A program made the position numbers and the translations under genes. The notes under the pieces were generated by a model, which was not told where the DNA came from, searched no databases, and was given only the letters and a program-made list of their open reading frames with translations. From the sequence record MF093736: DNA of 50,564 nucleotides. One strand, given 5' to 3'. The DNA comes from Shigella phage vB_SsoS-ISF002. Below are positions 8,538 through 50,564 of the stretch, piece by piece (within the stretch, counting starts at the first letter, position 1; each line of letters starts with the position of its first letter).

Positions 8538-8552
8538 TTTGGAGATCTGGAA

Positions 8553-9509: not shown

Positions 9510-9516
9510 TTGCCCA

Positions 9517-9545: not shown

Positions 9546-9550
9546 CTGTG

Positions 9551-9568: not shown

Positions 9569-9588
9569 TTACTTAAGGAGTTTATACT

Positions 9589-11382: not shown

Positions 11383-11393
11383 AAATGTTGAAG
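11329..11393 (+). repeat. 29-bp tandem direct repeat (2.2 copies) spanning the tail fibre stop codon
   Basis: gttgaagagttacaagaaaagataaaaat followed by gttgaagagttacaagaagagataaaaat, then gttgaag. Confidence 0.9.
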
Positions 11394-11403
11394 TCCAAAT
11401 GAT

Positions 11404-11429
11404 AAAATCCCCGCATTGCGGGGATTTTT
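11404..11429. terminator. bidirectional rho-independent terminator between the tail fibre and ssb genes
   Basis: Perfect 11-bp stem aaaatccccgc / gcggggatttt with a 3-nt loop. Confidence 0.7.
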
Positions 11430-11430
11430 G

Positions 11431-11844: not shown

Positions 11845-11889
11845 TATTTCTCTCCTAAAATTTATGGGCGACCGAAGCCGCCCTGATGA

Positions 11890-12537
11890 TTATTCGAAGT
11901 TGGTGATTGATTGAGATTGTACAGGCTTCGCGCTAGTTGCTTCAACCTGTTTTTTCTGTTCCGGTTGCGCCGGGCGAATACCGCGAGCCTTTCCGACCTC
12001 AAACTTCGCCTTAAGTGCGTTATAATGATCCTGAATGATTGATTTGCTCGCCGTGTCAGTCTGACGGTAGGCGCTGGCCCACACATCCTTCAGTGATTCT
12101 ATATCTTCGCACGCATCAAGTTCTTTTTTCCAGTCCTTGACAGATTTCACTGCAAGCTGAGCATCGTCATCACTCTGGCTAATCCCCAGCGCTGCGGCTA
12201 ATGAGTAACGTCGAGCATACGTCATTGCGGAACCTACGCCTTGCGGATCGCGCTTTGCAATCGGCATCATCATGAAGAATTTGGCCCACTGCCCGGATTT
12301 GTGAATCAGCATAGTTTCAAGGTGGAAGGTTGTTTCCGTGCTTGTATCCAGCATTGATTGCAGGATCATGATATCGTTGTCGGTCAACGCAGGACTAACT
12401 GCCGCCATCATTGCGTCAAGAGTTGCGTATGAGTTTTTCAGATGATTGTTTTTAGCGTCCTTCTTTGCTTTCGCGAATTTATTGCGAGCGTTAAACAGAG
12501 CCGGAAGGATTTCGTTGGTTTCTGGTGATAATTGCAT
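11890..12537 (-). CDS. Erf-family single-strand annealing protein (start moved to internal ATG with AGGAGA RBS)
   Basis: Erf-like segments NSYATLDAMM and MTYARRYSLAAALG; the RBS-supported ATG gives MQLSPETNE... Confidence 0.6.
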   Translation of the reverse strand: MQLSPETNEILPALFNARNKFAKAKKDAKNNHLKNSYATLDAMMAAVSPALTDNDIMILQSMLDTSTETTFHLETMLIHKSGQWAKFFMMMPIAKRDPQGVGSAMTYARRYSLAAALGISQSDDDAQLAVKSVKDWKKELDACEDIESLKDVWASAYRQTDTASKSIIQDHYNALKAKFEVGKARGIRPAQPEQKKQVEATSAKPVQSQSITNFE

Positions 12538-12611
12538 CTTAACTTCTCCTGATTGGTGTATGAGGTGCATTATAACACCTCATTAATTATTTGTTTAGCT
12601 ATTTGTGCCGT

Positions 12612-34994: not shown

Positions 34995-35519
34995 TTAAAG
35001 CATATCAAGAATGCTGTTTACTGCCTCTTTCATTGCATCCTCAGTAGTGGCGACTACTGTCGATGCGGAAGCTGACGAGTTTTCGATATTGATTGAGGCT
35101 GGCTTATCGATTCCCAAATCCTTACCGATAAAGGAGGCGTTAATCACACCGTTGGCAGCAAGCTGGAATTTTTGCTCGTTGATTACAGATTCCACGAACT
35201 CCATAACCTCACTGTACTCTTCCTCGCGTTTCCATTTAATGATTGCGGCCTCGCTTGCTCCTATGAATAGTCGGTATCCGGTCCAAGTGAAGACGCGCGG
35301 CTTATGAACAAGTGACTCGTAAACGCCACCCTGGAAGCTGGCTGATTCTGACGCCTTGATCGCATTATCTTCGGCCCATTCAAAATACTTAACTGACAGA
35401 TCGAATAATTGCTCAGGAGTCATTGCCCGATTCTTCGCAAGAACAGTGCCAAACTTTTTCTTGTATAGCTCTTTGAAATTACCTCCCTGAACTACAGGGG
35501 CGTTCTTAGGTTCACTCAT
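34995..35519 (-). CDS. terminase small subunit (tentative)
   Basis: 174 aa directly upstream of the large terminase; first gene after a box and hairpin. Confidence 0.5.
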   Translation of the reverse strand: MSEPKNAPVVQGGNFKELYKKKFGTVLAKNRAMTPEQLFDLSVKYFEWAEDNAIKASESASFQGGVYESLVHKPRVFTWTGYRLFIGASEAAIIKWKREEEYSEVMEFVESVINEQKFQLAANGVINASFIGKDLGIDKPASINIENSSASASTVVATTEDAMKEAVNSILDML

Positions 35520-35534
35520 AAATCAATCCTCTTC

Positions 35535-35553
35535 GTTTAACATTTAGTGCTAT
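35535..35553 (-). promoter_or_regulatory. conserved box (variant) at the start of the packaging/structural operon
   Basis: Plus strand ttaacatttagtgctat. Confidence 0.4.
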
Positions 35554-37308: not shown

Positions 37309-37364
37309 TTCGATTTTCTCTCTTCGTTGTCGATGAGGTGACTATATCAAATCACCCCACCGAC

Positions 37365-37384
37365 GTTTTAGCAATTAGTGCTAT
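37365..37384 (-). promoter_or_regulatory. conserved intergenic box
   Basis: Plus strand gttttagcaattagtgctat. Confidence 0.5.
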
Positions 37385-37953
37385 TTGTTGATGAACGTAG
37401 CGGCTATGTGCTGAGCGGTAATTTCAGGATGACCCTCAACAGAGAAGAAATCACATTCCTGATAACCGTTAACCCCGATCATATCGTCCAGGTAGATATA
37501 ATCGCGACTGTCGTTATCGAAGTTGCAACCGTTGCGATGTATGCGGCATAGCTTGACCTGGATATCGCCTTCAATCATTTGCAAGATCTCGTCTTTGAAT
37601 CCCCCGTCAGTAAATACCGAAAGTGAGTGCGACTCTTTAACCTTACTTTCCGCTCGCATACCGAAGAATCGATTTCCGAACTGCGGCTTGATGACTTCCT
37701 CGCTAATCCAGATCATAAACTGGCGCGGGCTTTTACCGTTCAGGATTGACGCTGGCTCTTCTTTGTAACGACGGTCCTCATACAAGAACATGAAATACTC
37801 GTAGTTAGTTTCACCCAAGATTGCCCGAGCAATCTCAAACATTGGTGCTTTGAAGCTGCGGAGCGCTACGTGATCGTAAGTGTCAGCCAGGATGCATCCG
37901 ATAGTGTCTTTTCCCGCTCCAGGTGCGCCGTTTAAAATGATAGCTGTTTTCAT
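37381..37953 (-). CDS. P-loop kinase, candidate polynucleotide 5'-kinase
   Basis: Walker A GAPGAGKDT at the N-terminus; paired with a HAD phosphatase gene. Confidence 0.55.
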   Translation of the reverse strand: MKTAIILNGAPGAGKDTIGCILADTYDHVALRSFKAPMFEIARAILGETNYEYFMFLYEDRRYKEEPASILNGKSPRQFMIWISEEVIKPQFGNRFFGMRAESKVKESHSLSVFTDGGFKDEILQMIEGDIQVKLCRIHRNGCNFDNDSRDYIYLDDMIGVNGYQECDFFSVEGHPEITAQHIAATFINK

Positions 37954-37954
37954 G

Positions 37955-38065
37955 TTAGTATCTCCCTAAAAATAACTTTGCCACATTGATGATAGTGTGA
38001 TTGATGATTAACAGGATGATAACCGTCAATACCGGATGTGCTGCAATAAATTCGTATAGGTTCAT
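37955..38065 (-). CDS. small hydrophobic peptide (36 aa; not in the supplied ORF track)
   Basis: MNLYEFIAAHPVLTVIILLIINHTIINVAKLFLGRY*; its ATG overlaps the phosphatase stop (ATGA). Confidence 0.3.
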   Translation of the reverse strand: MNLYEFIAAHPVLTVIILLIINHTIINVAKLFLGRY

Positions 38066-38595
38066 TCATCCACCCCGTGAGATTTTAAATGATCGTGAAC
38101 GTTATCGCCATAGTCAACTACAGCGTAAGTGGTTATTCCAAGCGAGCGGAATAATGGAATAATTTGCGGTGAGTCATCCCAGGCCGCCAGAATGTTATCA
38201 ATGCCGATCGCGCGCACCGCCTCTTCTTTCATTACTGTGTCTTTCCGGTTATCGGTGTGTGGTCGCATAATCAGGTAATCATATCGAGCGCCGTGATGCT
38301 TAAGCCACAACTCAGATGCGTAACGCACCTCATCACTTCGCCCGGTTAAAATGATCACATGATAACCAGCGGAAAACATAGAGTTCATCACATCGATCGT
38401 GCTTTGGATAGGGTTGTCAAATATTGCCGCGCGGTTAAACTCGGACCAGCTTTCAGTCAAGTGCAAATCTTTTGTCGGCAGCAAATGAAGTCTACCGGAT
38501 CCGTCACTAAGTGTCCCGTCAAAGTCAAAGATTGCGACGCGGCGCGGACCGAGAAACAGGTTGATTGTCTGGCCCCAAATGGTGATTTTATCCAT
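38062..38595 (-). CDS. HAD-family phosphatase, candidate polynucleotide 3'-phosphatase
   Basis: HAD motif I FDFDGTLSD near the N-terminus; downstream motif ILTGRSD. Confidence 0.6.
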   Translation of the reverse strand: MDKITIWGQTINLFLGPRRVAIFDFDGTLSDGSGRLHLLPTKDLHLTESWSEFNRAAIFDNPIQSTIDVMNSMFSAGYHVIILTGRSDEVRYASELWLKHHGARYDYLIMRPHTDNRKDTVMKEEAVRAIGIDNILAAWDDSPQIIPLFRSLGITTYAVVDYGDNVHDHLKSHGVDE

Positions 38596-38660
38596 GATTT
38601 ATTCCTCTGATTGGTTGCTTAACTCAACGAAGGGCATTCTAACAAATGCCCTTGAGCAAG

Positions 38661-38679
38661 TTTTAGCAATTCGTGCTAT
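38661..38679 (-). promoter_or_regulatory. conserved intergenic box
   Basis: Plus strand ttttagcaattcgtgctat. Confidence 0.5.
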
Positions 38680-39125
38680 TACCAGCATCTGATCTCGTAT
38701 TCAGCCCAATCGTCAAAATCACTTTGGCAGAATGTGCCACTATAATTTTCCATCATTTTATCGATCAGGAAGTAGCGCGACTCACCGTTACGATAGAAGT
38801 ATGAATCAGCAACGTTACGCGCCCAGCGCCCAGCCTCCTTCTTGCTCATCTTCCAGTGCTTCATTGCAATCTTCTTGAATGCACGCACGACGCGCTTGCG
38901 GATCTTAATGTGCTTGTACACCGCGTTGCATCCGTAGGCCATATATTCGTTATCGCCAAGATTCTGCATAATGTACGGATTTACTTCTTTTGACGTAATC
39001 ATCAGATCGCCATCGCCGCGACGAGCATCATAAATACCTGCTGTCATGTAGTGACCTTTGAACATACCAATGCCGTGCAGAGTGTACTCATCGTTAGGCG
39101 TTTCAATGCAAATTAAGTGTTTCAT
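38679..39125 (-). CDS. hypothetical protein (148 aa from RBS-supported ATG)
   Basis: RBS gaggaag before ATG; MKHLICIETPNDEY... Confidence 0.45.
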   Translation of the reverse strand: MKHLICIETPNDEYTLHGIGMFKGHYMTAGIYDARRGDGDLMITSKEVNPYIMQNLGDNEYMAYGCNAVYKHIKIRKRVVRAFKKIAMKHWKMSKKEAGRWARNVADSYFYRNGESRYFLIDKMMENYSGTFCQSDFDDWAEYEIRCW

Positions 39126-39180
39126 GAGTGCTTCCTCGTTTGTTGGTGTAGGGGAATCATAGCGCATTCCCCTTGATAGG

Positions 39181-39199
39181 TTTTAGCAATTCGTGCTAT
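39181..39199 (-). promoter_or_regulatory. conserved intergenic box
   Basis: Plus strand ttttagcaattcgtgctat; contains the upstream gene's TAA. Confidence 0.5.
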
Positions 39200-39401
39200 T
39201 CGTTTTAATAGTGATGCAAAAATAATTTTTTAAGCACGTCACCACTCGCGCTGAATCGACTTGTGGGAGCCTTAAAATTTCGTGGGCCAATTGCACTGCC
39301 GACACCTCAGATTTGTAGTAGTGTGCGATTCTGGAGGTATTTGGGCGCATTCCTTCCACTGCGTCACGCGCTGCATCTTCTGCTGTCATGATAGTAGCCA
39401 T
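39183..39401 (-). CDS. hypothetical protein (72 aa)
   Basis: ORF with ATG start. Confidence 0.4.
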   Translation of the reverse strand: MATIMTAEDAARDAVEGMRPNTSRIAHYYKSEVSAVQLAHEILRLPQVDSARVVTCLKNYFCITIKTNSTNC

Positions 39402-39549
39402 AAAACCCCCTTAAGAGATAATGTCAGGACCAGGAGGCAGAATAGCAACTCCTGAAATGATGGCGGCTCGTTATTCCAGTTAGAAAAGTCTGGCATAGTG
39501 TTTTCTCCAAAAGAAAGGGGAACCGCTCAGAGTCGATTCCCCGTTAAAA

Positions 39550-40188
39550 TTACATGATGAACATCAGCGAAATCGAAGCGACCAGGAGAACAAGAGCGAT
39601 AGCTAGGCCAGACAAGTCTGCTTTCTCTTCAAACTTCATTGCTGGCTTGCGGTCAACATTAATAGGCTTGACGTTGCTAATCTTGCTGGTGTTGATCTTG
39701 CCATTGACGCGGGAGGTGCGCTTGCGCTTCTTGCCGAACGTTGCGAACTTAGTGCCTCCACTGTTCCAACGAAGACCTTCGCCATTATGCGTTACGGTAG
39801 CGATGCGGTGACGGCCCGTGTCGTCAGTAAGCGCTACAGTGTGCTTTGCGTGCTCAGTAGGAACGTCGTAGATTTTTCCAACAGTAAATTTTTTGGTGTT
39901 ATCGCTGATACATTCAAATTTCATAAATTTTACCTCTTTATTATGCAGTTGATTGATTGCTTCGATTACGTCTCTAAATTTAACACCATCCACGATTCGA
40001 TGGAAGATATATTTTGAACTACCGCAATACGGCAGGAAAATTTCCTGGTACTCGTGACGACGGATGATGTTAACGTTGCTACCGTGCTCATCCACGACAA
40101 CGAAGCTGTCGTCATTGACGTGAGCGCCTTCGTAGATTTTTCCCCACTTAAAGCCCGATCCGTTACTTGATACGCATTCAAATTTCAT
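39550..40188 (-). CDS. membrane-anchored protein with an internally duplicated N-terminal domain
   Basis: Two repeats beginning MKFECVSSNGSGFKWGKIYEG and MKFECISDNTKKFTVGKIYDV; basic linker; C-terminal helix LSGLAIALVLLVASISLMFIM. Confidence 0.5.
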   Translation of the reverse strand: MKFECVSSNGSGFKWGKIYEGAHVNDDSFVVVDEHGSNVNIIRRHEYQEIFLPYCGSSKYIFHRIVDGVKFRDVIEAINQLHNKEVKFMKFECISDNTKKFTVGKIYDVPTEHAKHTVALTDDTGRHRIATVTHNGEGLRWNSGGTKFATFGKKRKRTSRVNGKINTSKISNVKPINVDRKPAMKFEEKADLSGLAIALVLLVASISLMFIM

Positions 40189-40472
40189 GGTCTAACCTTC
40201 CTATAAGGCTTGATTGATAACATCACGTATTGCGTGAAGTCGCATTCCTGATCGTCATACCCGCGATTGATGTATGGAGTCACGTCTGTAACATCGGATA
40301 CCCTGGCGTGAACTTCCCACCCGGTAAACTCACCGCGATCGAACTCTCGTAGCTCCAAGATATCGCCAATCTGGAAGTTGCGGTCATTGATGCGGAACTC
40401 TGCCGTTTTGGTTCCGTTCATTACTCCAATGAAATGTACCGGGTTAATTTTTAACTTATGACTCTTGCTCAT
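40185..40472 (-). CDS. hypothetical protein (95 aa), possible PUA/ASCH-like fold
   Basis: Weak resemblance only; start overlaps the downstream gene. Confidence 0.35.
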   Translation of the reverse strand: MSKSHKLKINPVHFIGVMNGTKTAEFRINDRNFQIGDILELREFDRGEFTGWEVHARVSDVTDVTPYINRGYDDQECDFTQYVMLSIKPYRKVRP

Positions 40473-40535
40473 GATGCCTCACTGATTGGTTGCCATTCTT
40501 CAATAAGGCCACTATATCAAATGGCCTTGCGGAAG

Positions 40536-40554
40536 GTTTAGCAATTCGTGCTAT
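40536..40554 (-). promoter_or_regulatory. conserved intergenic box
   Basis: Plus strand gtttagcaattcgtgctat; contains the TAG stop of a small ORF. Confidence 0.5.
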
Positions 40555-40700
40555 CGTTTAACGCACATAGTTTTTACTTCATATCCGAACGGCTTGTTTT
40601 CTGCAATCACCTCCCGAGCTTTTTCGCATGATTGCTGACTTTCCATGTATACGTGATCCGGCCCGGTGCTCATCAAGATAATCAAGACCCATGCAGCCAT
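40551..40700 (-). CDS. hypothetical small protein (49 aa; not in the supplied ORF track)
   Basis: MAAWVLIILMSTGPDHVYMESQQSCEKAREVIAENKPFGYEVKTMCVKR*; ATG overlaps the upstream stop; its stop lies inside a box like other genes. Confidence 0.35.
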   Translation of the reverse strand: MAAWVLIILMSTGPDHVYMESQQSCEKAREVIAENKPFGYEVKTMCVKR

Positions 40701-41206
40701 TATTTCACCTCATAGCGGACGAGCGTTCCGCGCCTAATGCTGATTTCACCTGATACCGTCTTGTTCTTGAAGCCGCCGTGATGCAATAGAATCGTGATGA
40801 TATCGTCGTGCACCTCAATAGTTTTTGGTGTCGCGGTAATCTCAATCCAAGAATCGCTGCTAATCTGGACACCTTTTAGCGTTGCGCTAAGTGGCACATT
40901 CTCGATCTGAGTGCACTGTAGCGATGGCTTGATTTCTGGCTTTGCAGCTTTGAATATTGAGCCTTCAATCTTCCAGCTATCATACAAGCTGTAAGTATTC
41001 TGATTGTCGCTCATAATGTAGTAGTAGTCCTTATCTGGTGAATTTTCTTTATTCACTCCGTTATGTCTGGCAATAAACCACTCCAGCTTAAGCTGCGATA
41101 CCTCATCAGTGGCCCACGTTCCCTTATCTTCACTGGTGAACGTAATTTCACCACATCCCATGCTGATAAATTTGATCGGGAATTTGACATCTTCTAATTT
41201 CAACAT
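40700..41206 (-). CDS. hypothetical protein (168 aa)
   Basis: ORF preceded by a box unit. Confidence 0.45.
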   Translation of the reverse strand: MLKLEDVKFPIKFISMGCGEITFTSEDKGTWATDEVSQLKLEWFIARHNGVNKENSPDKDYYYIMSDNQNTYSLYDSWKIEGSIFKAAKPEIKPSLQCTQIENVPLSATLKGVQISSDSWIEITATPKTIEVHDDIITILLHHGGFKNKTVSGEISIRRGTLVRYEVK

Positions 41207-41262
41207 AATGATTTCCTCTTAGTGGTTGATATGGGGATTGTACCAGTCAGGCCAAATCCCCT

Positions 41263-41281
41263 TTTAACAATTCGTGCTTAG
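41263..41281 (-). promoter_or_regulatory. conserved intergenic box (variant)
   Basis: Plus strand ttttaacaattcgtgctta. Confidence 0.45.
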
Positions 41282-41766
41282 TAAACCAACTCGCACTCAA
41301 TATCGAACGGCTCGGCGTTGCAGTGGAAGAAGCAAAGTGCCTCTTTATTCATCCCGCCGATAAATCCAACGGCTCGCAACTGCTCATCGTTAACGTATGC
41401 CAGGTTGCTAGTAATTCTTTCAAAGTCAACGATAACCGGGAACGTGCGATTCTCATACCCCGAGCGCATCGGGTAGCCGCCATTACTGAGAAGTCGAACC
41501 TTGCGCGGCTTAGGATTTGCTTGGACTTCCCATTCGAAGAAGAACATCGTTCCGTCATTCTCGTTAAAGTCAGCCGGACCAAATACATGGCTAACCGAAA
41601 GTCCATAGTCCAGATCGTACACGCCAGCTTTAACCAGATCGTCAACCTTAACGCGGTAGCCTCTAGTGCTGGAATCACACTTCACCGCATCAACCACGAT
41701 AGGGTCAGCTTCCAGGTCGCGAGTAAAGCCTTTGTAACCGCCAGTGCACAGTAATTTAATTTTCAT
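41278..41766 (-). CDS. hypothetical protein (162 aa)
   Basis: ORF preceded by a box unit and the leader catcgacaacgaa. Confidence 0.45.
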   Translation of the reverse strand: MKIKLLCTGGYKGFTRDLEADPIVVDAVKCDSSTRGYRVKVDDLVKAGVYDLDYGLSVSHVFGPADFNENDGTMFFFEWEVQANPKPRKVRLLSNGGYPMRSGYENRTFPVIVDFERITSNLAYVNDEQLRAVGFIGGMNKEALCFFHCNAEPFDIECELVY

Positions 41767-41821
41767 GTTATCGTCCTCGTTCGTTGTCGATGTGGTTACT
41801 ATATCGCAACCACATGATCGC

Positions 41822-41841
41822 GTTTTAACAAAAAGTGCTAT
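41822..41841 (-). promoter_or_regulatory. conserved intergenic box
   Basis: Plus strand gttttaacaaaaagtgctat. Confidence 0.5.
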
Positions 41842-42029
41842 TCTTTAATTTCGAAGCAATCCGTATCTTCATCGAATACCCAGGGATCGCCATTATCATC
41901 AAGCAATGAGATGTTACCGAAGCTGGTTAGCGAAGCGTTATAAGGCTTGTCGACAGTAAAGCACTCCTTTACTTCCTCATCTTCGCTACCTTTGAATACT
42001 GCAATCATTTGGTGCATAAAATCAGCCAT
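41838..42029 (-). CDS. hypothetical protein (63 aa)
   Basis: ORF with ATG start. Confidence 0.4.
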   Translation of the reverse strand: MADFMHQMIAVFKGSEDEEVKECFTVDKPYNASLTSFGNISLLDDNGDPWVFDEDTDCFEIKE

Positions 42030-42038
42030 TTTTAAATC

Positions 42039-42212
42039 CTATTCGCAAGTGATCTCATTTGATGTGATTGGTAGCAAAACATTGCCAACCATCACAAACG
42101 TAGTAACCTGGCTCCCGGTCTTGTGACAGCTATCTCTGACCTCTCCGCAGCCTGAAACTATCAGGATAGCCAGAGCGACCGACACCATCATGCAAATCAA
42201 TATTCGCATCAT
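42039..42212 (-). CDS. small lipoprotein (57 aa from the ATG overlapping the upstream stop)
   Basis: MMRILICMMVSVALAILIVSGCGEV has a signal peptide and lipobox (VSGC). Confidence 0.4.
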   Translation of the reverse strand: MMRILICMMVSVALAILIVSGCGEVRDSCHKTGSQVTTFVMVGNVLLPITSNEITCE

Positions 42213-42319
42213 TCGAACGCCCCAGCACACAAGAGCAACATTACCACGATGCCAACCATGACGTGACCCATGCAGAAGAACCAGACGGCAGACCATAAAG
42301 CAATTGTATTGAAGTTCAT
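42209..42319 (-). CDS. small transmembrane peptide (36 aa from RBS-supported ATG)
   Basis: MNFNTIALWSAVWFFCMGHVMVGIVVMLLLCAGAFE; RBS gaggtg. Confidence 0.4.
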   Translation of the reverse strand: MNFNTIALWSAVWFFCMGHVMVGIVVMLLLCAGAFE

Positions 42320-42543
42320 TTTAGCACCTCGATCTTGTTGTTGCCGATTGAGTTCTCTACGATCGCTTGCGAGTTTTCTCCCGTGATTCGTATGTAGAAG
42401 TTGCCAATCGCCGCGAAGTTCCACTGACCGCGCCATTTGAAATAAATTCCGTGCTTTGCACCCATAGCGTAGTGAGTGGATTTTGCCGGAATCATGTACC
42501 CGTTTACGTGGGTGAGTTTAGTCTGTTTATTGTAACGTGGCAT
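42316..42543 (-). CDS. hypothetical protein (75 aa)
   Basis: ORF whose stop overlaps the next start. Confidence 0.4.
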   Translation of the reverse strand: MPRYNKQTKLTHVNGYMIPAKSTHYAMGAKHGIYFKWRGQWNFAAIGNFYIRITGENSQAIVENSIGNNKIEVLK

Positions 42544-42549
42544 AATTAT

Positions 42550-42780
42550 TTATTCCTCAATTAAGGTGCTGATATCATCAAAGCCCTGGAGGTCTGCATT
42601 CCAGACTAGGAAGTTTGCAAGGTTTTCGCACCACACCCACTTTCCGTTATCTTCCATGTAGGTTTTGTATCCACCCGGCACGGCTTTGACTGCAAAGCGG
42701 CGACCTATCGATGTGATGAAAATAGCAAAGCGGTTGTTATTGGTTGAATCGATGGCTTGCTGGTTCTTGACGATTGACAT
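42550..42780 (-). CDS. hypothetical protein (76 aa)
   Basis: ORF preceded by a box unit. Confidence 0.45.
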   Translation of the reverse strand: MSIVKNQQAIDSTNNNRFAIFITSIGRRFAVKAVPGGYKTYMEDNGKWVWCENLANFLVWNADLQGFDDISTLIEE

Positions 42781-42843
42781 GGTTAATCCTCTGATTGGTA
42801 TCTCGTTTCGATGGGGTAACTATAGCAAGATGCCCCGATCCGG

Positions 42844-42862
42844 TTTTAACAATTCGTGCTAT
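42844..42862 (-). promoter_or_regulatory. conserved intergenic box
   Basis: Plus strand ttttaacaattcgtgctat. Confidence 0.5.
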
Positions 42863-43329
42863 TTAGTGAGATACTTTACGCCACTTCCGGCAACCTCATT
42901 CCAGCCATCCTCAAAGTGTACGCTATAGCAAGTTGCAGAACGCTGGCGAACCTTCGACACAGTGCGCCACACCTTACGGCCCGAGTAACCAGTCAGTACA
43001 CGCATCCCTGGCAACAACTCACCCGACTTTCTCACCTTAATGGCAACATCTGAACCAAGCTCGAACGACTCAAGGAAAACTGGGTCAATCATATCGCACA
43101 TGCGGCGAACTTCGTTCTCGTCTGCCCATTCACAGCCATCTCTTGACTTGATAACTTCAATAAAACAAACCAATTTCTCAGTTAGTGAGTTTGAAGCATA
43201 TGTGTCTATATCAATAACCGTGCAGTGACTGTACATATGCCAATGCGATCCGGTTTTATGCTCAAACGCGAAGAATGACATTTCATCATCAAGCTCATCT
43301 TTAGCCAGAAATACGGTAATGGTTGTCAT
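42859..43329 (-). CDS. hypothetical protein (156 aa)
   Basis: ORF with ATG start. Confidence 0.45.
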   Translation of the reverse strand: MTTITVFLAKDELDDEMSFFAFEHKTGSHWHMYSHCTVIDIDTYASNSLTEKLVCFIEVIKSRDGCEWADENEVRRMCDMIDPVFLESFELGSDVAIKVRKSGELLPGMRVLTGYSGRKVWRTVSKVRQRSATCYSVHFEDGWNEVAGSGVKYLTK

Positions 43330-43331
43330 GA

Positions 43332-43526
43332 TTAAGCCTCTGCAAAGTAAGTGTTAAAGCCTTTGAGTTTGTAGTCGCTACCAACTCGCACCACGTTCCA
43401 TGTCAGACCCGAGTGATACGCAACCATATCCTCAAGGTCGATCGTGATTTCGGTTCCTTTCTTGAACAGACCCTTCTCGTGAGTTGAGTCGCGCTGAACA
43501 ACCACTACGTCAATTTGCGTTTCCAT
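43332..43526 (-). CDS. hypothetical protein (64 aa)
   Basis: ORF preceded by a box unit, a TGGTATAGT extended -10 and the leader catcgacaacgaa. Confidence 0.45.
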   Translation of the reverse strand: METQIDVVVVQRDSTHEKGLFKKGTEITIDLEDMVAYHSGLTWNVVRVGSDYKLKGFNTYFAEA

Positions 43527-43582
43527 CTTTGTTTCCTCATTCGTTGTCGATGGGATAACTATACCAGGTTATCCCGATCCGG

Positions 43583-43602
43583 TTTTAACAAAAAGTGCTA
43601 TT
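43583..43602 (-). promoter_or_regulatory. conserved intergenic box
   Basis: Plus strand ttttaacaaaaagtgctat; contains the TAG stop of the upstream gene. Confidence 0.5.
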
Positions 43603-43933
43603 CTACAATGAACTCGACGTCGGTGATTTCCCACCCTTCCGGCTGCGTAATGTTCATAAGCTCACAGTGCGGAACCTCAAGGCTTTTCATCTTGAGGGTT
43701 ATCTTGTACTGATTCTTGATTTCGTGAATAAGTCTAAGAACCTTCACTGACGCCTCTTTCTTGCTAAGACCCCTTACGTCGTACGTTGGGCCAATAGTAT
43801 TAAGGTTTACTTTGATTAATTTTTTACCAGTCACGGCATCAGCTATCTTCTTGATGTTCTCTTCCTGCTTCTCGCTTTCCAGCTTTCGTCTTTCCATCAC
43901 CTTCGTATCAAACATGTTAGTAAACATAATCAC
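43598..43933 (-). CDS. hypothetical protein (111 aa)
   Basis: ORF with ATG start. Confidence 0.45.
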   Translation of the reverse strand: MIMFTNMFDTKVMERRKLESEKQEENIKKIADAVTGKKLIKVNLNTIGPTYDVRGLSKKEASVKVLRLIHEIKNQYKITLKMKSLEVPHCELMNITQPEGWEITDVEFIVE

Positions 43934-45217: not shown

Positions 45218-45922
45218 ATGAAATTAATCTGGTCACTATTCGACGGTTCAGGTCTTGCAGGTCATGAGCTAGCAAAGCAAGGCCATAAGGTGATGTGCTT
45301 CAACTTTGACGGAGCCGATCACGGAGATTACGCAAAGTACAACGCCAGGGTTGAGCATCATAACATTGAGTATGTGAACGTCTTTATTAATGAGAAGTTC
45401 GAACGTGATGCTATCGCGGGTGTGTATGGCAAGCCTGATTTCATCATGGCATTTCCTCCATGCACTGACCTGGCTGTTAGTGGCGCTGCTCACTTCGCAA
45501 GAAAGCGTGAGCGAGATCCGTTATTCCAGGAGAAGGCTGTTGCTACCGCCCGGATTGCTGCGAATATTGGCGACTCTCTTGGCGTGACTTACATAATTGA
45601 GAATCCGGTGAGTGTCCTGTCATCTGCCTGGAGAAAACCAAATCACTCCTTCAACCCCTGGGAGTATGGCGGCTATCTTCCTGAGAATGACGCACACCCC
45701 TGGTTCCCTATGTATATTGCGCCGCGCGATGCTTATCCGAAGAAAACTTGTCTTTGGACCTCGGACGATTTTGTCATGCCGGAGAAAAAACCTGTAAGCC
45801 TGCCTGACGGGTACTCTACGCAACACAGCAAGCTGGGCGGCAAGTCGGCAAAGACGAAGCTGATACGATCCCTGTCGCCTCGTGGATTTTTCAAAGCGAT
45901 CGCAAATAGCACTTTTTGTTAA
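45218..45922 (+). CDS. compact DNA (cytosine-5)-methyltransferase-like protein
   Basis: Motif I-like LFDGSG, catalytic PC-like FPPCTDLAVSG, ENV-like IIENPVS; start at ATG with RBS gaggaagcaaca. Confidence 0.5.
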   Translation: MKLIWSLFDGSGLAGHELAKQGHKVMCFNFDGADHGDYAKYNARVEHHNIEYVNVFINEKFERDAIAGVYGKPDFIMAFPPCTDLAVSGAAHFARKRERDPLFQEKAVATARIAANIGDSLGVTYIIENPVSVLSSAWRKPNHSFNPWEYGGYLPENDAHPWFPMYIAPRDAYPKKTCLWTSDDFVMPEKKPVSLPDGYSTQHSKLGGKSAKTKLIRSLSPRGFFKAIANSTFC

Positions 45923-45925
45923 AAC
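45906..45925 (+). promoter_or_regulatory. conserved intergenic box overlapping the 3' end of the methyltransferase gene
   Basis: atagcactttttgttaaaac; its TAA is the gene stop. Confidence 0.5.
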
Positions 45926-45982
45926 TCGATCGGTGCGATTTGGCATAATTACCTCATCGAAACGAGATTGAGGAAAAACAAA

Positions 45983-46168
45983 ATGGCACGTCGCATCACT
46001 AAAGACCTTAAAGTTCTGAACAAAGAAAACGTAGTTAAAATCCTGGTTATTTGGGGATACAACGAAGAGTCAGCAAAGCAGAAGGTAGAGGCTGGTTATG
46101 ACTTGGCTGTCAAGGCAATGCCTAACGACGATGCCAAAGGCATTGCAAACTATGTAGCATTCTTCTAA
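45983..46168 (+). CDS. hypothetical protein (61 aa)
   Basis: ATG with RBS gagga. Confidence 0.45.
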   Translation: MARRITKDLKVLNKENVVKILVIWGYNEESAKQKVEAGYDLAVKAMPNDDAKGIANYVAFF

Positions 46169-46183
46169 TTAACGGGCTAACAA

Positions 46184-46369
46184 ATGAAAACGAAATTAGT
46201 GCATAAATCAGAAATCAAGATCGGCGATACTGTGATTCACAACGGAGAGTTAAGGACGGTTGATAAGCAGTCAATAAGCAGAGATGAATTTATGGGTCTG
46301 TTGTTGTTCGGCGACTCATATCGCCTAGGATACAAATTTGTCGAGCTTGTTGAGGATGTAAAATTCTAA
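46184..46369 (+). CDS. hypothetical protein (61 aa)
   Basis: ORF followed by a box. Confidence 0.45.
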   Translation: MKTKLVHKSEIKIGDTVIHNGELRTVDKQSISRDEFMGLLLFGDSYRLGYKFVELVEDVKF

Positions 46370-46378
46370 ATAGCACTT

Positions 46379-46398
46379 TTTGTTAAAACACGCCCGGT
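46379..46398 (+). promoter_or_regulatory. conserved intergenic box
   Basis: atagcactttttgttaaaac. Confidence 0.5.
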
Positions 46399-46444
46399 TA
46401 ATCAGGGTATAACTCCAACATAAACCAATCAGGAGAATGACTAG

Positions 46445-46825
46445 ATGACAGATTCAAAACTTCGGGCAGCAATTGACCGCGCAAATGAGAAGGGATTCAC
46501 AGTTGAGATTTGCAATCGCCTGGTGGGCGGGATAATCCACCCCAGCAACCGGGTTGTTATCACGCAACGCGATACCGGGATCAGTATCACGGATATCTTT
46601 ACCATTGAAGAGCATAAAAGCATGATTTCTTATATCAATCGTTACGTAGGATCGGTTGAGTTCGGAAAGCTGGACGGTGACGAGAAGGAGGCTATCATTG
46701 ACAACCTTCTCGAAGAGGTGAGTCTCGCGTTCGAAGAGCGACCGGATAACGGAACGACTCGTTGGGATTGCGACAAGATGGACGCAATCAACCGTATCCG
46801 TGAAATCCTGGAGGAAAGATTATGA
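46445..46825 (+). CDS. hypothetical protein (126 aa)
   Basis: RBS caggaga within the recurring accaatcaggag leader. Confidence 0.45.
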   Translation: MTDSKLRAAIDRANEKGFTVEICNRLVGGIIHPSNRVVITQRDTGISITDIFTIEEHKSMISYINRYVGSVEFGKLDGDEKEAIIDNLLEEVSLAFEERPDNGTTRWDCDKMDAINRIREILEERL

Positions 46826-46995
46826 TCGTATATATCGTTATGGGCGGCGTTACATATGAGGGTGAATATGTAGAGACTGTTCACCTTGATGAGAAGAAGG
46901 CGAAGCAGTACGAAAACAGAATGAAGGAACAGATTCGCGCCGGAAAAAGCATGTACGACTACACGACGATTGTTGAGAAGGAAATTACCGAATAG
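46822..46995 (+). CDS. hypothetical small protein (57 aa; not in the supplied ORF track)
   Basis: MIVYIVMGGVTYEGEYVETVHLDEKKAKQYENRMKEQIRAGKSMYDYTTIVEKEITE*; RBS ggagga; its stop TAG is inside a box. Confidence 0.4.
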   Translation: MIVYIVMGGVTYEGEYVETVHLDEKKAKQYENRMKEQIRAGKSMYDYTTIVEKEITE

Positions 46996-47010
46996 CACTT
47001 TTTGCTAAAC
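46992..47010 (+). promoter_or_regulatory. conserved intergenic box
   Basis: atagcactttttgctaaac, followed by the inverted repeat gggatgac / gtcatccc around tggtatagt. Confidence 0.5.
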
Positions 47011-47066
47011 GCTCATCCGGGATGACTGGTATAGTCATCCCATCAACAGCAAGCGAGGAAAGAGTT

Positions 47067-47438
47067 ATGTTTAAGCATTTCACAGATCTGGACTTCTCAG
47101 CCAGCACAGCAATCCAGACTGACGAGAAAGAAAGCGTAGCGATCGAGAACATCGAGCGCAAGATTTACAACAAGCAAGAGAAGGCCGTGAGAGCAGCTCT
47201 AACCGCCTATTATGGTGTAAGTGATGCAATGGAGTGCGTTAACCGCGTAACGCGCGTGGTGGACCGTTTGGGTGTGTCTAGTTTCGTCGATAAAGACACT
47301 GGAGAGGTAATCATCCAGCTAAACAACCCATCTATGCGTACTGAGTTAGGCAATATTGCACTGTGGGGAGTTGCTAACTATTCAATCACCGTCAACTCAT
47401 GTGTAGCGGATCGTGTTAAGGAGGCATTGTATGAATGA
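47067..47438 (+). CDS. hypothetical protein (123 aa)
   Basis: ATG with RBS gaggaaagag. Confidence 0.45.
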   Translation: MFKHFTDLDFSASTAIQTDEKESVAIENIERKIYNKQEKAVRAALTAYYGVSDAMECVNRVTRVVDRLGVSSFVDKDTGEVIIQLNNPSMRTELGNIALWGVANYSITVNSCVADRVKEALYE

Positions 47439-47631
47439 TAATATTTACCGCGTAGTTGCGATCTCACGCAAAACGCAAAAGAGTGTGATCGCTTACATGG
47501 GTAGTAGCGCCATTGAAGCTACGGATGCCTTCGAATTATTGAAGAACAACGAGGGATTTATGAACACGTTCCGCGTTCGACTTGAGCGCCTCGAGCCTGT
47601 TATCATTGATGAAGCGCGAAAGCTATCCTGA
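47431..47631 (+). CDS. hypothetical protein (66 aa)
   Basis: ATG with RBS aaggagg. Confidence 0.45.
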   Translation: MNDNIYRVVAISRKTQKSVIAYMGSSAIEATDAFELLKNNEGFMNTFRVRLERLEPVIIDEARKLS

Positions 47632-47648
47632 CTGGTTAAGGGGGAGCA

Positions 47649-47969
47649 ATGAAACACACTTACAAAATCACAACGAAGTCACCGAAGATTAACGGAAGCA
47701 CGGTTGCGGCACTGAATAACGCGGCGGCAATTCACGAAAAAAATATCATGGAGCGCGTGAAGGCGGCGGTAGGTAGATTCTACGGGATCAATGCCGACAT
47801 TGCCGACAGCAAGCGACTGTTCAAATACGTTCCAGGTCATCCATATGGCAGGATGATTGATATCAAGCATGAAAAAGAATTGGTTCGAATCGGATCGCTA
47901 AGCATTGATGAGTTCGATCATAGCATCAACCTGGTGACGGCGTATCAAACTTGGGACGGTAAAAAATGA
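47649..47969 (+). CDS. hypothetical protein (106 aa)
   Basis: ATG with RBS aagggggag. Confidence 0.45.
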   Translation: MKHTYKITTKSPKINGSTVAALNNAAAIHEKNIMERVKAAVGRFYGINADIADSKRLFKYVPGHPYGRMIDIKHEKELVRIGSLSIDEFDHSINLVTAYQTWDGKK

Positions 47970-48109
47970 TTTATATTCACACTTTCTATACTGGCAAATT
48001 TAACAGCGTAAAAAATGTTCGCGTTTACGATAGCCACCAAACAGCAATGATGCAGAGAGTAGTTCTAGGCGGCACAATCAAAGAGTGCAAAGTAATTTCT
48101 GAGTACTGA
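47966..48109 (+). CDS. hypothetical small protein (47 aa; not in the supplied ORF track)
   Basis: ATG overlaps the upstream TGA (ATGA); stop just before a box variant. Confidence 0.3.
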   Translation: MIYIHTFYTGKFNSVKNVRVYDSHQTAMMQRVVLGGTIKECKVISEY

Positions 48110-48185
48110 TAGCACGAATAGCTAAAGACAATCAGCAGGGAGTAAGGTATATTACTCCCACACCAAACAAACAAAGGAATTAAAA

Positions 48186-48410
48186 ATGAGCATTAAAGTT
48201 GAGAATATCATCAAGCACCTGAACGCGAAAGGCCGTGTAGTTATCAAAATGGATAAGTCTTCCGGTTTTATTTCAATGACGGTAACTAAGACTCGTAACG
48301 GTAATAACGTTATCGGCAGCACGCCAGGCTCGCGCTTAGTAAATGCAACAGATGCTGATGTGCGCGCTACGCTTGAGGCTAACTCAATTTACATTAATTC
48401 ATGGAGTTAA
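48186..48410 (+). CDS. hypothetical protein (74 aa)
   Basis: ATG with RBS aaaggaa. Confidence 0.45.
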   Translation: MSIKVENIIKHLNAKGRVVIKMDKSSGFISMTVTKTRNGNNVIGSTPGSRLVNATDADVRATLEANSIYINSWS

Positions 48411-48413
48411 TTG

Positions 48414-48626
48414 ATGGAACGGGATAATTTCTGGACTCGTTATTTTGCCGCTCTTGATGCCGGGCTTAGTGCGGAATGGTGTATCAAGGTTGCATATAAA
48501 GAAATTACGCTTGACGAAGCGCTAGGGAATATGGATATGGACGCAGAAAGTGAATATAATCCCGACTTCGAGATGCCAGACGATGATATTGGTGATAATG
48601 ACGACGACGATTATATTCCCTGGTAA
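48414..48626 (+). CDS. hypothetical protein with a strongly acidic C-terminus (70 aa)
   Basis: C-terminal DDDIGDNDDDDYIPW. Confidence 0.45.
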   Translation: MERDNFWTRYFAALDAGLSAEWCIKVAYKEITLDEALGNMDMDAESEYNPDFEMPDDDIGDNDDDDYIPW

Positions 48627-48645
48627 ATAGCACGATTTGTTAATA
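48627..48645 (+). promoter_or_regulatory. conserved intergenic box (variant)
   Basis: atagcacgatttgttaata. Confidence 0.45.
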
Positions 48646-48706
48646 TTGCCGTAAGGTCATTTGATAAAGTGACCTTATTCAAGATAACCAATCAGGAGTT
48701 AACGAA

Positions 48707-49123
48707 ATGAAATCCATCAAACTGAAATGCACTTACGCAGATAAAATCACAGGATTTGAAGTAAACAACCTATACAAGGGTCGTGAGCGCTATGATGGCA
48801 CTCGCGAAGTAAAATTAAAATGCGGCAAGTATTTAAAACTTGAAAAGCATGATGAATTACAGATTCACGGATCTGATGAAATCTTCTTCGCGAAGTTCAC
48901 TGAGTTGAAAACAAAGACGCTCAAGTGTACCGGGCTTGACCATCGCAACCCAATGAAAAAATCATTCAAAGTTGGCAAGCGTTACCAGGTTGAAAGCGGT
49001 CGCGCTCTCGGTGGCGTAGCTGGTTACATCTTTGATGAAGATGGTTGTCGCTGGACCTTATTTCGCGAAGAGGTTGGTTTTAGTATCGCAGACGGCACAA
49101 CCTTTGAGGCCAAATACTTATAA
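48707..49123 (+). CDS. hypothetical protein (138 aa)
   Basis: RBS within the accaatcaggag leader. Confidence 0.45.
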   Translation: MKSIKLKCTYADKITGFEVNNLYKGRERYDGTREVKLKCGKYLKLEKHDELQIHGSDEIFFAKFTELKTKTLKCTGLDHRNPMKKSFKVGKRYQVESGRALGGVAGYIFDEDGCRWTLFREEVGFSIADGTTFEAKYL

Positions 49124-49126
49124 CCA

Positions 49127-49145
49127 ATAGCACTTTTTGCAAAAC
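49127..49145 (+). promoter_or_regulatory. conserved intergenic box
   Basis: atagcactttttgcaaaac, followed by the inverted repeat ggtgta / tacacc around tatcat. Confidence 0.5.
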
Positions 49146-49199
49146 GCGTGTACCATTGGCGGTGTATCATTTACACCGTCAACTAAGGAGTTTATTGTG

Positions 49200-50564
49200 A
49201 TGTTTAATATTAAGCCAAAACTGAATTACCAACAGATTATTGAGATCGCCAATAGCACTGGAGTTAATCCGGTGGCGATCGCAATTCGTGAAAACAGCTA
49301 TGGTGACTCAGTTTCATTTTGGCAAGATCCGATCGATATCAATAGCGGCAACGATAAGTTCCCTCTGATTTCGTTAGGTGGCGATAACCTGGTATTCGAA
49401 TATGCAAAAGCAAAGGCCGAGTCTGTACAGTTCCCTGTTTCGTCTGCGTACGCTCATTTCATTGGGTGCATCTCAGCCGCGATGCTCGGGAAGTTTTGGG
49501 TGCAATATCACGGAGAAGAGCAACCTACCGCTCTTTACATGGTAATCAGCCAGCCACCTTCAACAGGTAAATCTGCGATTAACTCCGCAGCGATTACGCC
49601 TATGCGCGCAGAGATTCAGCGACTGAATGAAGAGCGAAAAAAGGAACGTATCCGTTTAACCAGTCAGCTACGTCAGGTCGAGAAGGAAATTAAAAACGAC
49701 CCGAAGGGTAACACGACGGCGGCGCTGTACGAGGACAAAGAAAAACTGGAAGAAAAGATCAAGAAGATGGCTGATATTGTTTTCGCGGTATCAGATCCTA
49801 CACCTGAAGGTCTTGCGAAGGTGGCGGCTGTTCAAGGTCACTTCTCAGTAATCTCTGATGAGGCGACAGCAATCAATACATTGCTCGGACTGACTTATGG
49901 CGGTTCTGATAAGAAATCAAACAGCGAACTTATCCTTAAGGCGTGGGATAAAAACCATATGGAGGTCGCGCGTTCAAACCAAGACAACAACTTATCTCTT
50001 TGCCCGGTCGGTTCGATCTGCGTCATTGCGCAGGATGAAACAATCAAGGGTATCATGGACGCAGGCCAGAGAGGCATCGGCGTATCTGAGCGTTTCCTTT
50101 TAGTTCGTGAGGAACCGCTTTTAGGTACTCGTATTCTTTGTGATGAAAATGGTGATGCGCTGTATAAGGAAGTCGATCGAGGATTGGTGAGTAAATATTA
50201 TCGACTCGTACACAACATCATGAAAGAGGATAACGTTGTTTTATCTGTAAGCCGTAATGCTATGCGTGAATTAAACCTTGCGCGTCAGGCGATGGAACCG
50301 GATTTCGCCGCAGGTGGGAAATACTCTCACTCAATGCTACGCGGTCATCTCGGCAAGTTCGATAAGCACGCCTTGCGTATTGCTTCAGTTCTCCACACGA
50401 TAAAGAATTGGGAGGGTGAATCACCGAACCGTTCCAACCGTGAGATTGACCTTGAAACAATGCAGGAAGCAATCATGATCTTTAATGAGCTTTCCAGGAC
50501 TTATCTGTCGTCTGCCAGCGCTGCCGGGTATGCTGGTGATGATGCTGAATCTCGTAAGCTGATT
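49200..50564 (+). CDS. 5' part of a large P-loop-containing protein; the ORF runs off the window end in-frame
   Basis: ATG at 49200 with RBS aaggag; Walker A-like VISQPPSTGKSAI; no stop before base 50564; the last full codon ends exactly at the window end. Confidence 0.5.
   Translation, partial: MFNIKPKLNYQQIIEIANSTGVNPVAIAIRENSYGDSVSFWQDPIDINSGNDKFPLISLGGDNLVFEYAKAKAESVQFPVSSAYAHFIGCISAAMLGKFWVQYHGEEQPTALYMVISQPPSTGKSAINSAAITPMRAEIQRLNEERKKERIRLTSQLRQVEKEIKNDPKGNTTAALYEDKEKLEEKIKKMADIVFAVSDPTPEGLAKVAAVQGHFSVISDEATAINTLLGLTYGGSDKKSNSELILKAWDKNHMEVARSNQDNNLSLCPVGSICVIAQDETIKGIMDAGQRGIGVSERFLLVREEPLLGTRILCDENGDALYKEVDRGLVSKYYRLVHNIMKEDNVVLSVSRNAMRELNLARQAMEPDFAAGGKYSHSMLRGHLGKFDKHALRIASVLHTIKNWEGESPNRSNREIDLETMQEAIMIFNELSRTYLSSASAAGYAGDDAESRKLI

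Follow-up and report, generated by a model that had tools for sequence, protein, structure and literature searches.

Introduction

The early region of Shigella phage vB_SsoS-ISF002 carries a 20-nt box that recurs between small genes and is followed, in many of its copies, by an inverted repeat and a promoter-like hexamer. The question raised by this locus is what these repeated units do. We examined them in the whole stretch of 50,564 nucleotides deposited as MF093736, referred to here as the window, with particular attention to positions 37309-43602; all coordinates are those of the window. A preliminary description, made from the sequence alone, had proposed a structural role for the inverted repeat, either as a DNA cruciform, as an RNA hairpin on read-through transcripts or as part of an activator-dependent promoter class. 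Our analysis suggests that the units are composite cassettes of the promoter-early stem-loop (PeSL) type, with a marbox-like box as a variant upstream element. We assign this reading a probability of roughly 0.6.

Across 7 kb spanning the units, the window is 95.6% identical to Shigella phage vB_SflS-ISF001, whose whole genome is colinear with it, and 88-91% identical to many Tunavirus (T1-like, Drexlerviridae) genomes. By these sequence matches the source phage is a T1-like Tunavirus. The hosts on record for related phages are mostly enterobacteria (Escherichia, Shigella, Klebsiella, Salmonella, Citrobacter and Enterobacter). Positions 37309-43602 form part of the leftward early arm, a minus-strand run of small genes of unknown function. 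The window holds 27 copies of the box by a loose pattern and 24 to 25 by a stricter one.

Anatomy of the repeated unit

The units share one order of parts. The stop codon of the upstream gene lies within the 20-nt box, and the box is followed by 18 nt, an extended -10 element (TGnTAnnnT), a C-rich discriminator, CA(+1), a leader with the sequence TCGA(C)AACGA, a Shine-Dalgarno (SD) sequence and ATG. In all eight units of 37309-43602, the upstream open reading frame (ORF) ends in a TAG or TAA that is inside the box or abuts it. The SD sequence and start codon close each unit at its 3' end, and the units sit among small ORFan genes.

A box scan of IMG/VR yielded 483 unique elements from 123 loci. 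Their column consensus, aAATAGCACtttTTGcTAAAAC-(N8)-gg..at.tGgTATAaTtacCcCAtcgAAAc.AAa, holds tGgTATAaT in register, and 388 of the 483 elements are in register by the definition used throughout, which is nAnnnT at the exact -10 position. The distance from TTGYTA to the -10 was constant at 22 nt, in agreement with the spacing of about 22 nt first described. Variants of the -10 hexamer (TATAGT in 113 elements, CATAAT in 63, TATTAT in 54, and others) kept A as the second base and T as the sixth, in the manner of sigma-70 -10 elements. TG preceded the hexamer in 45% of elements, so the earlier statement that the -10 is often extended was borne out. A conserved CA was found six nt 3' of the -10, and the conserved leader starts exactly at this CA, which is likely to represent positions -1/+1.

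The exact 13-mer CATCGACAACGAA, reported to be common to three cassettes, occurs exactly three times, each time on the minus strand (Units 1, 3 and 8; Table 1). The leader described as common to many genes, ACCAATCAGRRG, had 17 matches at no more than one mismatch, compared with 0.76 expected. The 9-mer ACCAATCAG was found 17 times in the window against an expectation of 0.4. Its leader copies, mostly near an SD sequence on the gene strand, are at 12557, 25060, 38615, 40490, 42799 and 44505 on the minus strand and at 45195, 46424 and 48687 on the plus strand; seven copies on the plus strand, at 3891, 5703, 7382, 11670, 15803, 19920 and 31729, are antisense within minus-strand genes.

Read from its sequence, the unit contains a sigma-70 promoter whose -10 is close to consensus, often carries the TG extension and lies at a fixed distance of 18 nt from a 20-bp upstream box. 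Other promoter types and upstream elements were rejected. A canonical sigma-70 promoter with TTGYTA as its -35 was rejected on the fixed 22-nt spacer, and canonical -35/-10 pairs showed no excess over chance in our scan (27 found, 28.4 expected); the earlier remark that the spacing is too long for a canonical sigma-70 -35 therefore stands. The sigma-54 consensus TGGCAC-N5-TTGC resembles TAGCAC-N3-TTGC, but on inspection the units have a G-to-G spacing of 9 rather than 11 and AG in place of GG. The discriminator CCCCATCG is similar to a sigma-32 -10 (CCCCATnT), and inspection found no -35 at 13-15 nt. The MotA box of T4, TGCTTtA, is centred at -30; the centre of the phage box, at -40.5, lies upstream of that by one turn of the helix, and no systematic search for MotA/AsiA homologues was made. 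Finally, the proximal subsite of an UP element spans -46..-38, and the A-tract of the units, at -35..-32, is not in it.

A stem-loop in the spacer and discriminator

The inverted repeats listed as examples in the preliminary description were all present at their positions. Perfect Watson-Crick stems of at least 6 bp occurred in 41% of elements compared with 4% of shuffles, and when G·U pairs were allowed a hairpin was seen in 375 of the 388 in-register elements (97%). For 217 non-redundant elements, the mean minimum free energy of the sense RNA fold was -11.46 kcal/mol, compared with -5.19 kcal/mol in shuffles that kept the -10 (p=3e-34). A search of Rfam gave no match at the gathering score.

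The hairpins fell into two placements. Class A hairpins (236/388) are centred at about -12.5 and enclose the -10, with one arm in the spacer (~-24 to -17) and the other in the discriminator (-8 to -1). Among 152 unique class A stems the median stem was 8 bp and the median loop 9 nt. Class A stems ended most often at -1 (77/236), and some reached a few nt into the leader. Class B hairpins (139/388) are centred at about -21, lie entirely in the spacer and end at the first T of the -10. Their stems are GC-rich and 6-8 bp long, and GNRA-type tetraloops dominate, GAAA, GCAA and GCGA being the commonest loops. The inverted repeat had been described as flanking the -10, which is correct for class A and does not apply to class B. 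Thirteen units of the window are class A and four are class B; the corresponding numbers in T1 are 12 and 3. The class can switch between orthologous loci.

Several observations bear on the strand that folds. Among 214 unique stems, the non-Watson-Crick pairs were G·T on the sense strand in 68 cases and A·C in 8; for pairs that do not touch the -10 the numbers were 45 and 8 (p=2e-7). The mean energy of the 217 elements was -11.46 kcal/mol for the sense strand and -9.58 kcal/mol for the antisense strand, with the sense fold better in 161 and the antisense fold better in 54 (p=1e-15). Individual hairpins gave -9 to -17 kcal/mol when folded as RNA and about -7 kcal/mol when folded as DNA, a comparison that the preliminary description had proposed. 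At orthologous loci, the Unit 3 stem GTGGTT/AACCAC is replaced by GGGGTT/AACCCC, a compensatory change, and by GGGGTT/AACTCC, a wobble intermediate; the stems thus vary while the structure is kept, as had been noted. In unselected elements, covariation in a fixed register showed a modest excess (48.1% paired compared with 42.1 ± 1.0% in shuffles), which is modest because hairpin registers vary among elements, and per-element tests are more informative.

The wobble asymmetry, the fold bias and the compensatory changes favour folding of one strand, the sense strand, for which RNA is the simplest candidate. The earlier proposal of an RNA hairpin on read-through transcripts is supported by these results, as well as by the GNRA loops of class B and the position at which class A stems end. 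Since class A stems mostly stop at or close to -1, immediately ahead of the predicted CA(+1), a complete hairpin would form only in transcripts that enter from upstream, and a transcript from the unit's own promoter would usually lack all or most of it.

A cruciform or a protein-bound palindrome is disfavoured by the same data. It could be argued that the repeat is a structural promoter element, which forms an extruded DNA cruciform or pre-melts the -10 for capture by sigma-70: the class A repeat has its centre at -12.5 and holds the -10 in its loop, and the virion-polymerase promoters of phage N4 have a hairpin centred near -12. However, the ratio of 68 G·T to 8 A·C means that the complementary arm would carry A·C mismatches, destabilising one of the two arms of the cruciform. 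Arms of 6-9 bp with loops of 6-10 nt extrude poorly, T(-7) and the neighbouring base are often paired in the stem, and class B hairpins exclude the -10 altogether. Hairpin promoters of the N4 type have a short loop on the template strand and are recognised by a virion RNA polymerase of the phage; in the elements studied here the loops span 6-10 nt and the wobble bias falls on the non-template strand, and the annotation lists no giant virion RNA polymerase gene. Together with the DNA folds of only about -7 kcal/mol, these points make the cruciform put forward in the preliminary description highly improbable.

A small RNA hairpin in the box itself (UAGCA/UGYUA, with G-C or G-U pairs) was also rejected: variants such as TAGCTA break the pairing, and the constant spacing from the -10 speaks for a site in DNA. 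GATC, the Dam site, was present in the spacer of 23% of elements, for example at -28..-25 in 43579..43576 and 41819..41816, and the phage encodes DNA methyltransferases. When GATC is at -28..-25 the leader begins with ATC in 87% of elements, compared with 40% otherwise, which fits pairing of GAT with +1..+3 and a longer stem.

Relation to PeSL cassettes and to the TLS repeat

PeSLs were described in the T4-type phages RB49, Phi1, PST and nt-1 (Arbiol et al. 2010, PMC2839356; Comeau et al. 2014, PMC4122927). Their layout is an upstream stop codon, a sigma-70 promoter, a stem-loop containing G-T pairs, an SD sequence and ATG, and the stem-loop is mostly between -35 and -10 or overlaps the -10 (PMC2839356). 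One PeSL stem-loop reduced lacZ expression as strongly as the rrnB T1 terminator (PMC2839356).

An early gene of the window, 45968-46168 (66 aa), has 74% DNA identity to Phi1 ORF117 (L124 401-603), an ORFan of the T4-type Krischvirus. The match is evidence of the sharing of gene cassettes between unrelated coliphage families, and it led us to read the Phi1 PeSLs directly. Both hairpin placements were found among them (GGGGATCggtgATCCCC-TTATAAT and cGGGGGTattaatatACCCCCA), and the experimentally tested stem-loop of PeSL211/210 is of the class B type. Phi1 PeSLs also carry the same discriminator and leader as the window units (acaCCCATCGAAACGAAAC, CATACCGAAACGAA).

The likeness extends over most of the unit. 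In both systems the element starts at a stop codon, has a sigma-70 -10 and a G·T-containing stem-loop in the spacer or around the -10, ends in an SD sequence and ATG, and is located among small ORFan genes at cassette breakpoints; the Phi1 elements further share the C-rich discriminator and leader (CCCATCGAAACGA...). The upstream part is different. Phi1 has a consensus TTGACA -35 at 17 nt and an A/T-rich upstream region, whereas the units of the window have no -35 and instead carry a 20-bp marbox-like box that ends 18 nt from the -10. The carriers are also different, being unrelated siphoviruses of the Drexlerviridae, and the termination and mini-circle data come from the PeSLs of T4-type phages. 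On balance, these comparisons are best accommodated if the units are composite PeSL-type cassettes in which the marbox-like box is a variant upstream element.

The box itself has been seen before. A 21-nt direct repeat of phage TLS, aaATAGCACnnnTTGnTAAAA, was also noted in T1, Rtp and Rogue1, and roles as a stoperator, enhancer or UP element were suggested for it (2024; PMC11447400). It is the same box, in the same orientation and at the same distance from the start codon, as the box of the window. Neither the hairpin next to the repeat nor the fixed -10, the leader or the likeness to a marbox is described in that paper, and its supplementary table gives the repeats together with canonical terminators at other places, with no entry for the hairpins beside the repeats (PMC11447400). 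In the GenBank record of phage SA30RD, the hairpins of the units are annotated as rho-independent terminators (by WebGeSTer, and three also by TransTermHP). The units do resemble intrinsic terminators in having a stable stem-loop directly after a gene, and class B shares with them a GC-rich stem, a tetraloop and an A/U-rich tail.

Cassette shuffling at the units

PeSLs mediate modular shuffling, recombine within the stem-loop and form mini-circles (PMC2839356). In the early arms, 7 of the 20 ends of the alignment between the window and T1 were within 6 nt of a unit. A one-gene cassette at 41843/42039 is present in the window phage and absent from T1, and in T1 an HNH gene is inserted exactly at box 49127 (49121/49126). 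Whole units, hairpin class included, are replaced at orthologous loci. Having about 40 nt of conserved sequence in common, the units would also be recombination points for the swapping of gene cassettes.

The clustering of breakpoints also fits another explanation, in which the inverted repeat acts as single-stranded DNA of sense polarity, on the lagging-strand template or in a recombination intermediate, and serves as a signal for priming, recombination or excision of mini-circles. Hairpins of single-stranded DNA are also stabilised by G·T wobble and GAAA loops. If replication forks leave the divergent region at ~44.7 kb, gene orientation implies that lagging-strand synthesis would copy the sense strand on both arms. 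The recombination of PeSLs in the stem-loop and their mini-circles (PMC2839356) point the same way. Against this, the DNA hairpins reach only about -7 kcal/mol, and the position of the hairpin is tied to promoter landmarks (most often -1 for class A, and the first position of the -10 hexamer for class B), as expected for an element defined by a transcript. The Phi1 stem-loop, moreover, terminated transcription in a reporter assay (PMC2839356). We consider a signal in single-stranded DNA distinctly improbable and retain the RNA stem-loop of a PeSL-type cassette as the preferred reading.

The box resembles a class II marbox

The boxes of the phage elements matched a mean of 12.97 of the 14 specified positions of the printed marbox/soxbox consensus, AYNGCACNNWNNRYYAAAYN. 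An unbiased scan of the window with this consensus found 24 sites at no more than one mismatch, compared with 0.7 in shuffles, and 4 perfect sites compared with 0.05. From the predicted +1, the phage box spans -50..-31 in forward orientation, with GCAC upstream and its centre at -40.5. In class II promoters of MarA, SoxS and Rob, a forward marbox overlaps the -35 and is centred at about -41, and RamA is located at about -41 on micF. The marbox of micF in the E. coli genome, ACAGCACTGAATGTCAAAAC, ends 18 nt before its -10, the same distance as in the phage, and when the mar marbox is read in reverse complement, ATGCCACGTTTTGCTAAATC, a stretch of 14 nt is identical to the box at 44934.

The phage elements and the class II promoters of MarA/SoxS/Rob (RamA) thus have in common a 20-bp asymmetric AYNGCACNNWNNRYYAAAYN box, in forward orientation at about -41 and 18 nt from the -10. 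Identity of the phage box is 15/20 to the micF marbox and 16/20 to the mar marbox. The phage differs from the host promoters in carrying ~20-25 near-identical copies in one 50-kb genome and in combining the box with an extended -10 and an embedded hairpin; it also differs from the marbox consensus at position 19, which is usually A.

A search with phmmer of all six frames revealed no phage homologue of MarA, SoxS or Rob (best E 0.4; the queries were approximate sequences that matched one another at E<1e-28), and by Pfam the annotated phage regulator has no AraC-type domain and only a weak Cro-like helix-turn-helix (HTH). A MarA-like activator encoded by the phage was therefore set aside. Enterobacterial hosts carry the genes for MarA, SoxS and Rob. 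Since no phage homologue was found, the activator would be host-encoded. The literature search found no paper linking marboxes to T1-like phages.

From this match in sequence and geometry, we infer that the box is a class II marbox for a host activator of the MarA/SoxS/Rob (RamA) type. The activator-dependent promoter class of the preliminary description gains support in this way and can be narrowed to a putative forward class II marbox. The broader proposal, that T1-like phages (Drexlerviridae) drive 20-25 early/middle promoters through host MarA/SoxS/Rob (RamA), with near-optimal class II marboxes replacing the -35, is one that we hold tentatively and at somewhat under even odds.

The box might instead be the operator of a phage regulator, such as the Cro/YdaS-like HTH protein encoded at 8039-8491, which would repress or activate all units; the resemblance to a marbox would then be coincidental and the hairpin a separate RNA element. 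The core of the box is a partial palindrome, TAGCA-N5-TGCTA, which could suit a dimeric regulator, and one phage protein, of 150 aa, gave a weak match to a Cro-like HTH (P22_Cro E=4e-5, which does not reach the Pfam cut-off). The box is also conserved far more strictly than E. coli marboxes, and stoperator and enhancer roles were proposed by the authors of the TLS study (PMC11447400). However, in 40% of boxes the palindrome is broken by TGTTA, and conservation is asymmetric, with AAAAC on the 3' side and no mirrored 5' flank. The strict orientation with transcription and the fixed 18 nt to the -10, as in micF, fit a monomeric asymmetric site, and the 14-nt run identical between the mar marbox and one box would have to be accidental. 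An operator of a phage regulator appears unlikely on this evidence, and the marbox remains the reading that we prefer for the box.

Proposed mechanism and points against it

We propose that each unit is a compact composite PeSL-type cassette between two small early genes. The marbox would stand in for the -35 hexamer and recruit RNA polymerase through a MarA/SoxS/Rob-type activator. An RNA stem-loop would be written into the only freely variable segments of the promoter, the spacer and the discriminator. On transcripts arriving from upstream, this hairpin may attenuate or terminate transcription, protect the 3' ends, or both. It would thereby insulate neighbouring cassettes, while the unit's own mRNA would keep a clean conserved 5' leader, AUCGA(C)AACGA, beginning at the predicted start site. 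Class B hairpins, with a GC-rich stem, a GNRA loop and an A/U-rich -10 after it, resemble weak intrinsic terminators; class A hairpins, which have no U-tract, would more likely be attenuators or stabilisers.

Several points weigh against this model. A terminator scan for a stem plus a T-run flagged neither hairpin class, and the number of T in the 10 nt after the stem was 0.97 for class A and 3.5 for class B; with no U-tract or a weak one, it is doubtful that most units terminate transcription in the classical intrinsic way. The unit at 8023 (-) has a hairpin though no co-oriented gene is upstream of it. The wobble pairs and GAAA loops, as said above, would also suit hairpins of single-stranded DNA. 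The marbox consensus is degenerate, and position 19 is A instead of Y in ~80% of boxes. The partly palindromic core already mentioned belongs here too, and a near-consensus extended -10 might function without any activator. In the literature searched there were no transcript 5' or 3' ends, protein-binding data or expression data for T1-like phages, and the start site, the termination or stabilisation of transcripts and the dependence on an activator are thus inferred here.

Individual units and neighbouring features

The eight units of 37309-43602, and those of the rightward early arm and of the replication and recombination genes, are listed in Table 1.

Table 1. Repeated units of the window and their parts.
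Feature	Position	Strand	Details
Unit 1	43527..43601	-	Box 43601..43582, marbox-like; TAG of the box is the stop of ORF 43598..43933
Unit 1 hairpin	43575..43552	-	GGGATAAC-ctggtata-GTTATCCC; arms 43575..43568 and 43559..43552; RNA fold -13.4 kcal/mol
Unit 1 -10	43563..43558	-	TATAGT, preceded by TG; predicted +1 A 43551; leader CATCGACAACGAA 43552..43540; ATG 43526..43524
Unit 2	42781..42862	-	Box 42862..42843; extended -10 TGcTATAGT; leader CATCGAAACGAGAT then ACCAATCAGAGG
Unit 2 hairpin (weak)	42836..42831, 42818..42813	-	GGGGCA/TACCCC; 4 bp plus mismatch; 6 bp GGGGTA/TACCCC in phage SA30RD
Unit 3	41767..41841	-	Box 41841..41822; leader CATCGACAACGAA 41792..41780
Unit 3 hairpin	~41817..41790	-	ATGTGGTTGC-gatata-GTAACCACAT; encloses -10 TATAGT; -15.1 kcal/mol, z -3.9
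Unit 4	41207..41280	-	Box with TAA stop (cTAAGCACGAATTGTTAAAA); extended -10 TGgTACAAT
Unit 4 hairpin	41261..41255, 41239..41233	-	GGGGATT/AATCCCC; 15-nt loop
Unit 5	40473..40554	-	Box 40554..40535; extended -10 TGaTATAGT; leader includes ACCAATCAG
Unit 5 hairpin	40528..40505	-	AAGGCCA-tttgatatag-TGGCCTT; arms 40528..40522 and 40511..40505
Unit 6, upstream part	39168..39199	-	Unit extends to 39126; box 39199..39180; upstream ORF stop is the TAA within TTGCTAAAAC
Unit 6 hairpin	39173..39166, 39157..39150	-	AGGGGAAT/ATTCCCCT; -10 TATGAT; CACACCAACAAACGA-type leader
Unit 7	38596..38679	-	Box 38679..38660; extended -10 TGtTAGAAT; leader includes ACCAATCAGAGG
Unit 7 hairpin	38653..38645, 38638..38630	-	AAGGGCATT/AATGCCCTT; -17.0 kcal/mol, z -3.95
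Unit 8	37309..37384	-	Box 37384..37365; extended -10 TGaTATAGT; leader CATCGACAACGAA 37335..37323
Unit 8 hairpin	37364..37350, 37343..37329	-	GTCGGTGGGGTGATT/AGTCACCTCATCGAC; 15 bp, 3 G·U pairs
Rightward early arm units	45906..49210	+	Boxes start at 45906, 46370, 46992, 48109, 48627, 49127
Rightward-arm hairpins	47018..47041, 48138..48159	+	47018..47041 is GGGATGAC-tggtata-GTCATCCC
Units before replication/recombination genes	725..12611	both	Boxes 725 (+), 4162 (-), 4494 (-), 5517 (-), 8026 (-), 8478 (+), 12611 (-, Erf)
Hairpin upstream of Erf	box ~12608-12611	-	ATGAGGTGT-tataat-GCACCTCAT
Class B units	725, 4494, 5517		GC-rich spacer hairpin ending at the -10, then A/U-rich tail

Some copies of the box stand apart from a complete unit. 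The copy at 35553..35519 (-) is directly before the small-terminase gene, 20 nt from its ATG, and comes after a canonical bidirectional terminator at 35578-35595. It has no in-register -10 or hairpin. Placed like this, it cannot serve in the usual promoter. Orphan boxes with neither an in-register -10 nor a hairpin were also found at 9568..9549 (-), 25063 (+), 28830 (+) and 44934 (+), of which those at 9568, 25063 and 28830 are antisense to the neighbouring genes. These orphan boxes may be relics or may have another role.

Within the cassette array, the gene at 40188-40472 (-), which RefSeq names an RNA-binding protein, is DUF3850/ASCH-like (Pfam E=2e-15). Between the divergent early arms, in the region 44620-44900, the sequence GTGTTAATC(G) stands three times in tandem at 44620-44660, and TA repeats form an extreme tract at ~44780-44850. 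The best matches to a canonical sigma-70 promoter in this region are at 44918-44890 and 44839-44810, both on the minus strand. The region may be an immediate-early promoter region, an origin or a genome end.

Implications for T1-like phages

These results offer a concrete, testable function for a T1-like repeat that was left unexplained in the 2024 TLS paper (PMC11447400). They suggest that PeSL-type cassettes are not confined to T4-type myoviruses, the only phages in which they had been described, and that early regions in an unrelated family of siphoviruses are organised by them as well. The leader common to both phage families argues for exchange of regulatory cassettes or for convergence.

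Of the whole proposal, the link to marboxes holds the most interest and lends itself best to testing. If it holds, expression of a common group of coliphages and Klebsiella phages, many of them candidates for therapy, would depend on the regulators of multidrug efflux and porins, and phage susceptibility would be linked to antibiotic and bile stress. The units would also provide a set of compact, insulated and activator-responsive promoters for engineering. Phage gene expression would be coupled to the bile, oxidative or antibiotic stress state of the host, and replicating phage genomes could titrate MarA/SoxS/Rob (RamA). The T1-like phages would then be the first phages with a regulon founded on mar/sox/rob.

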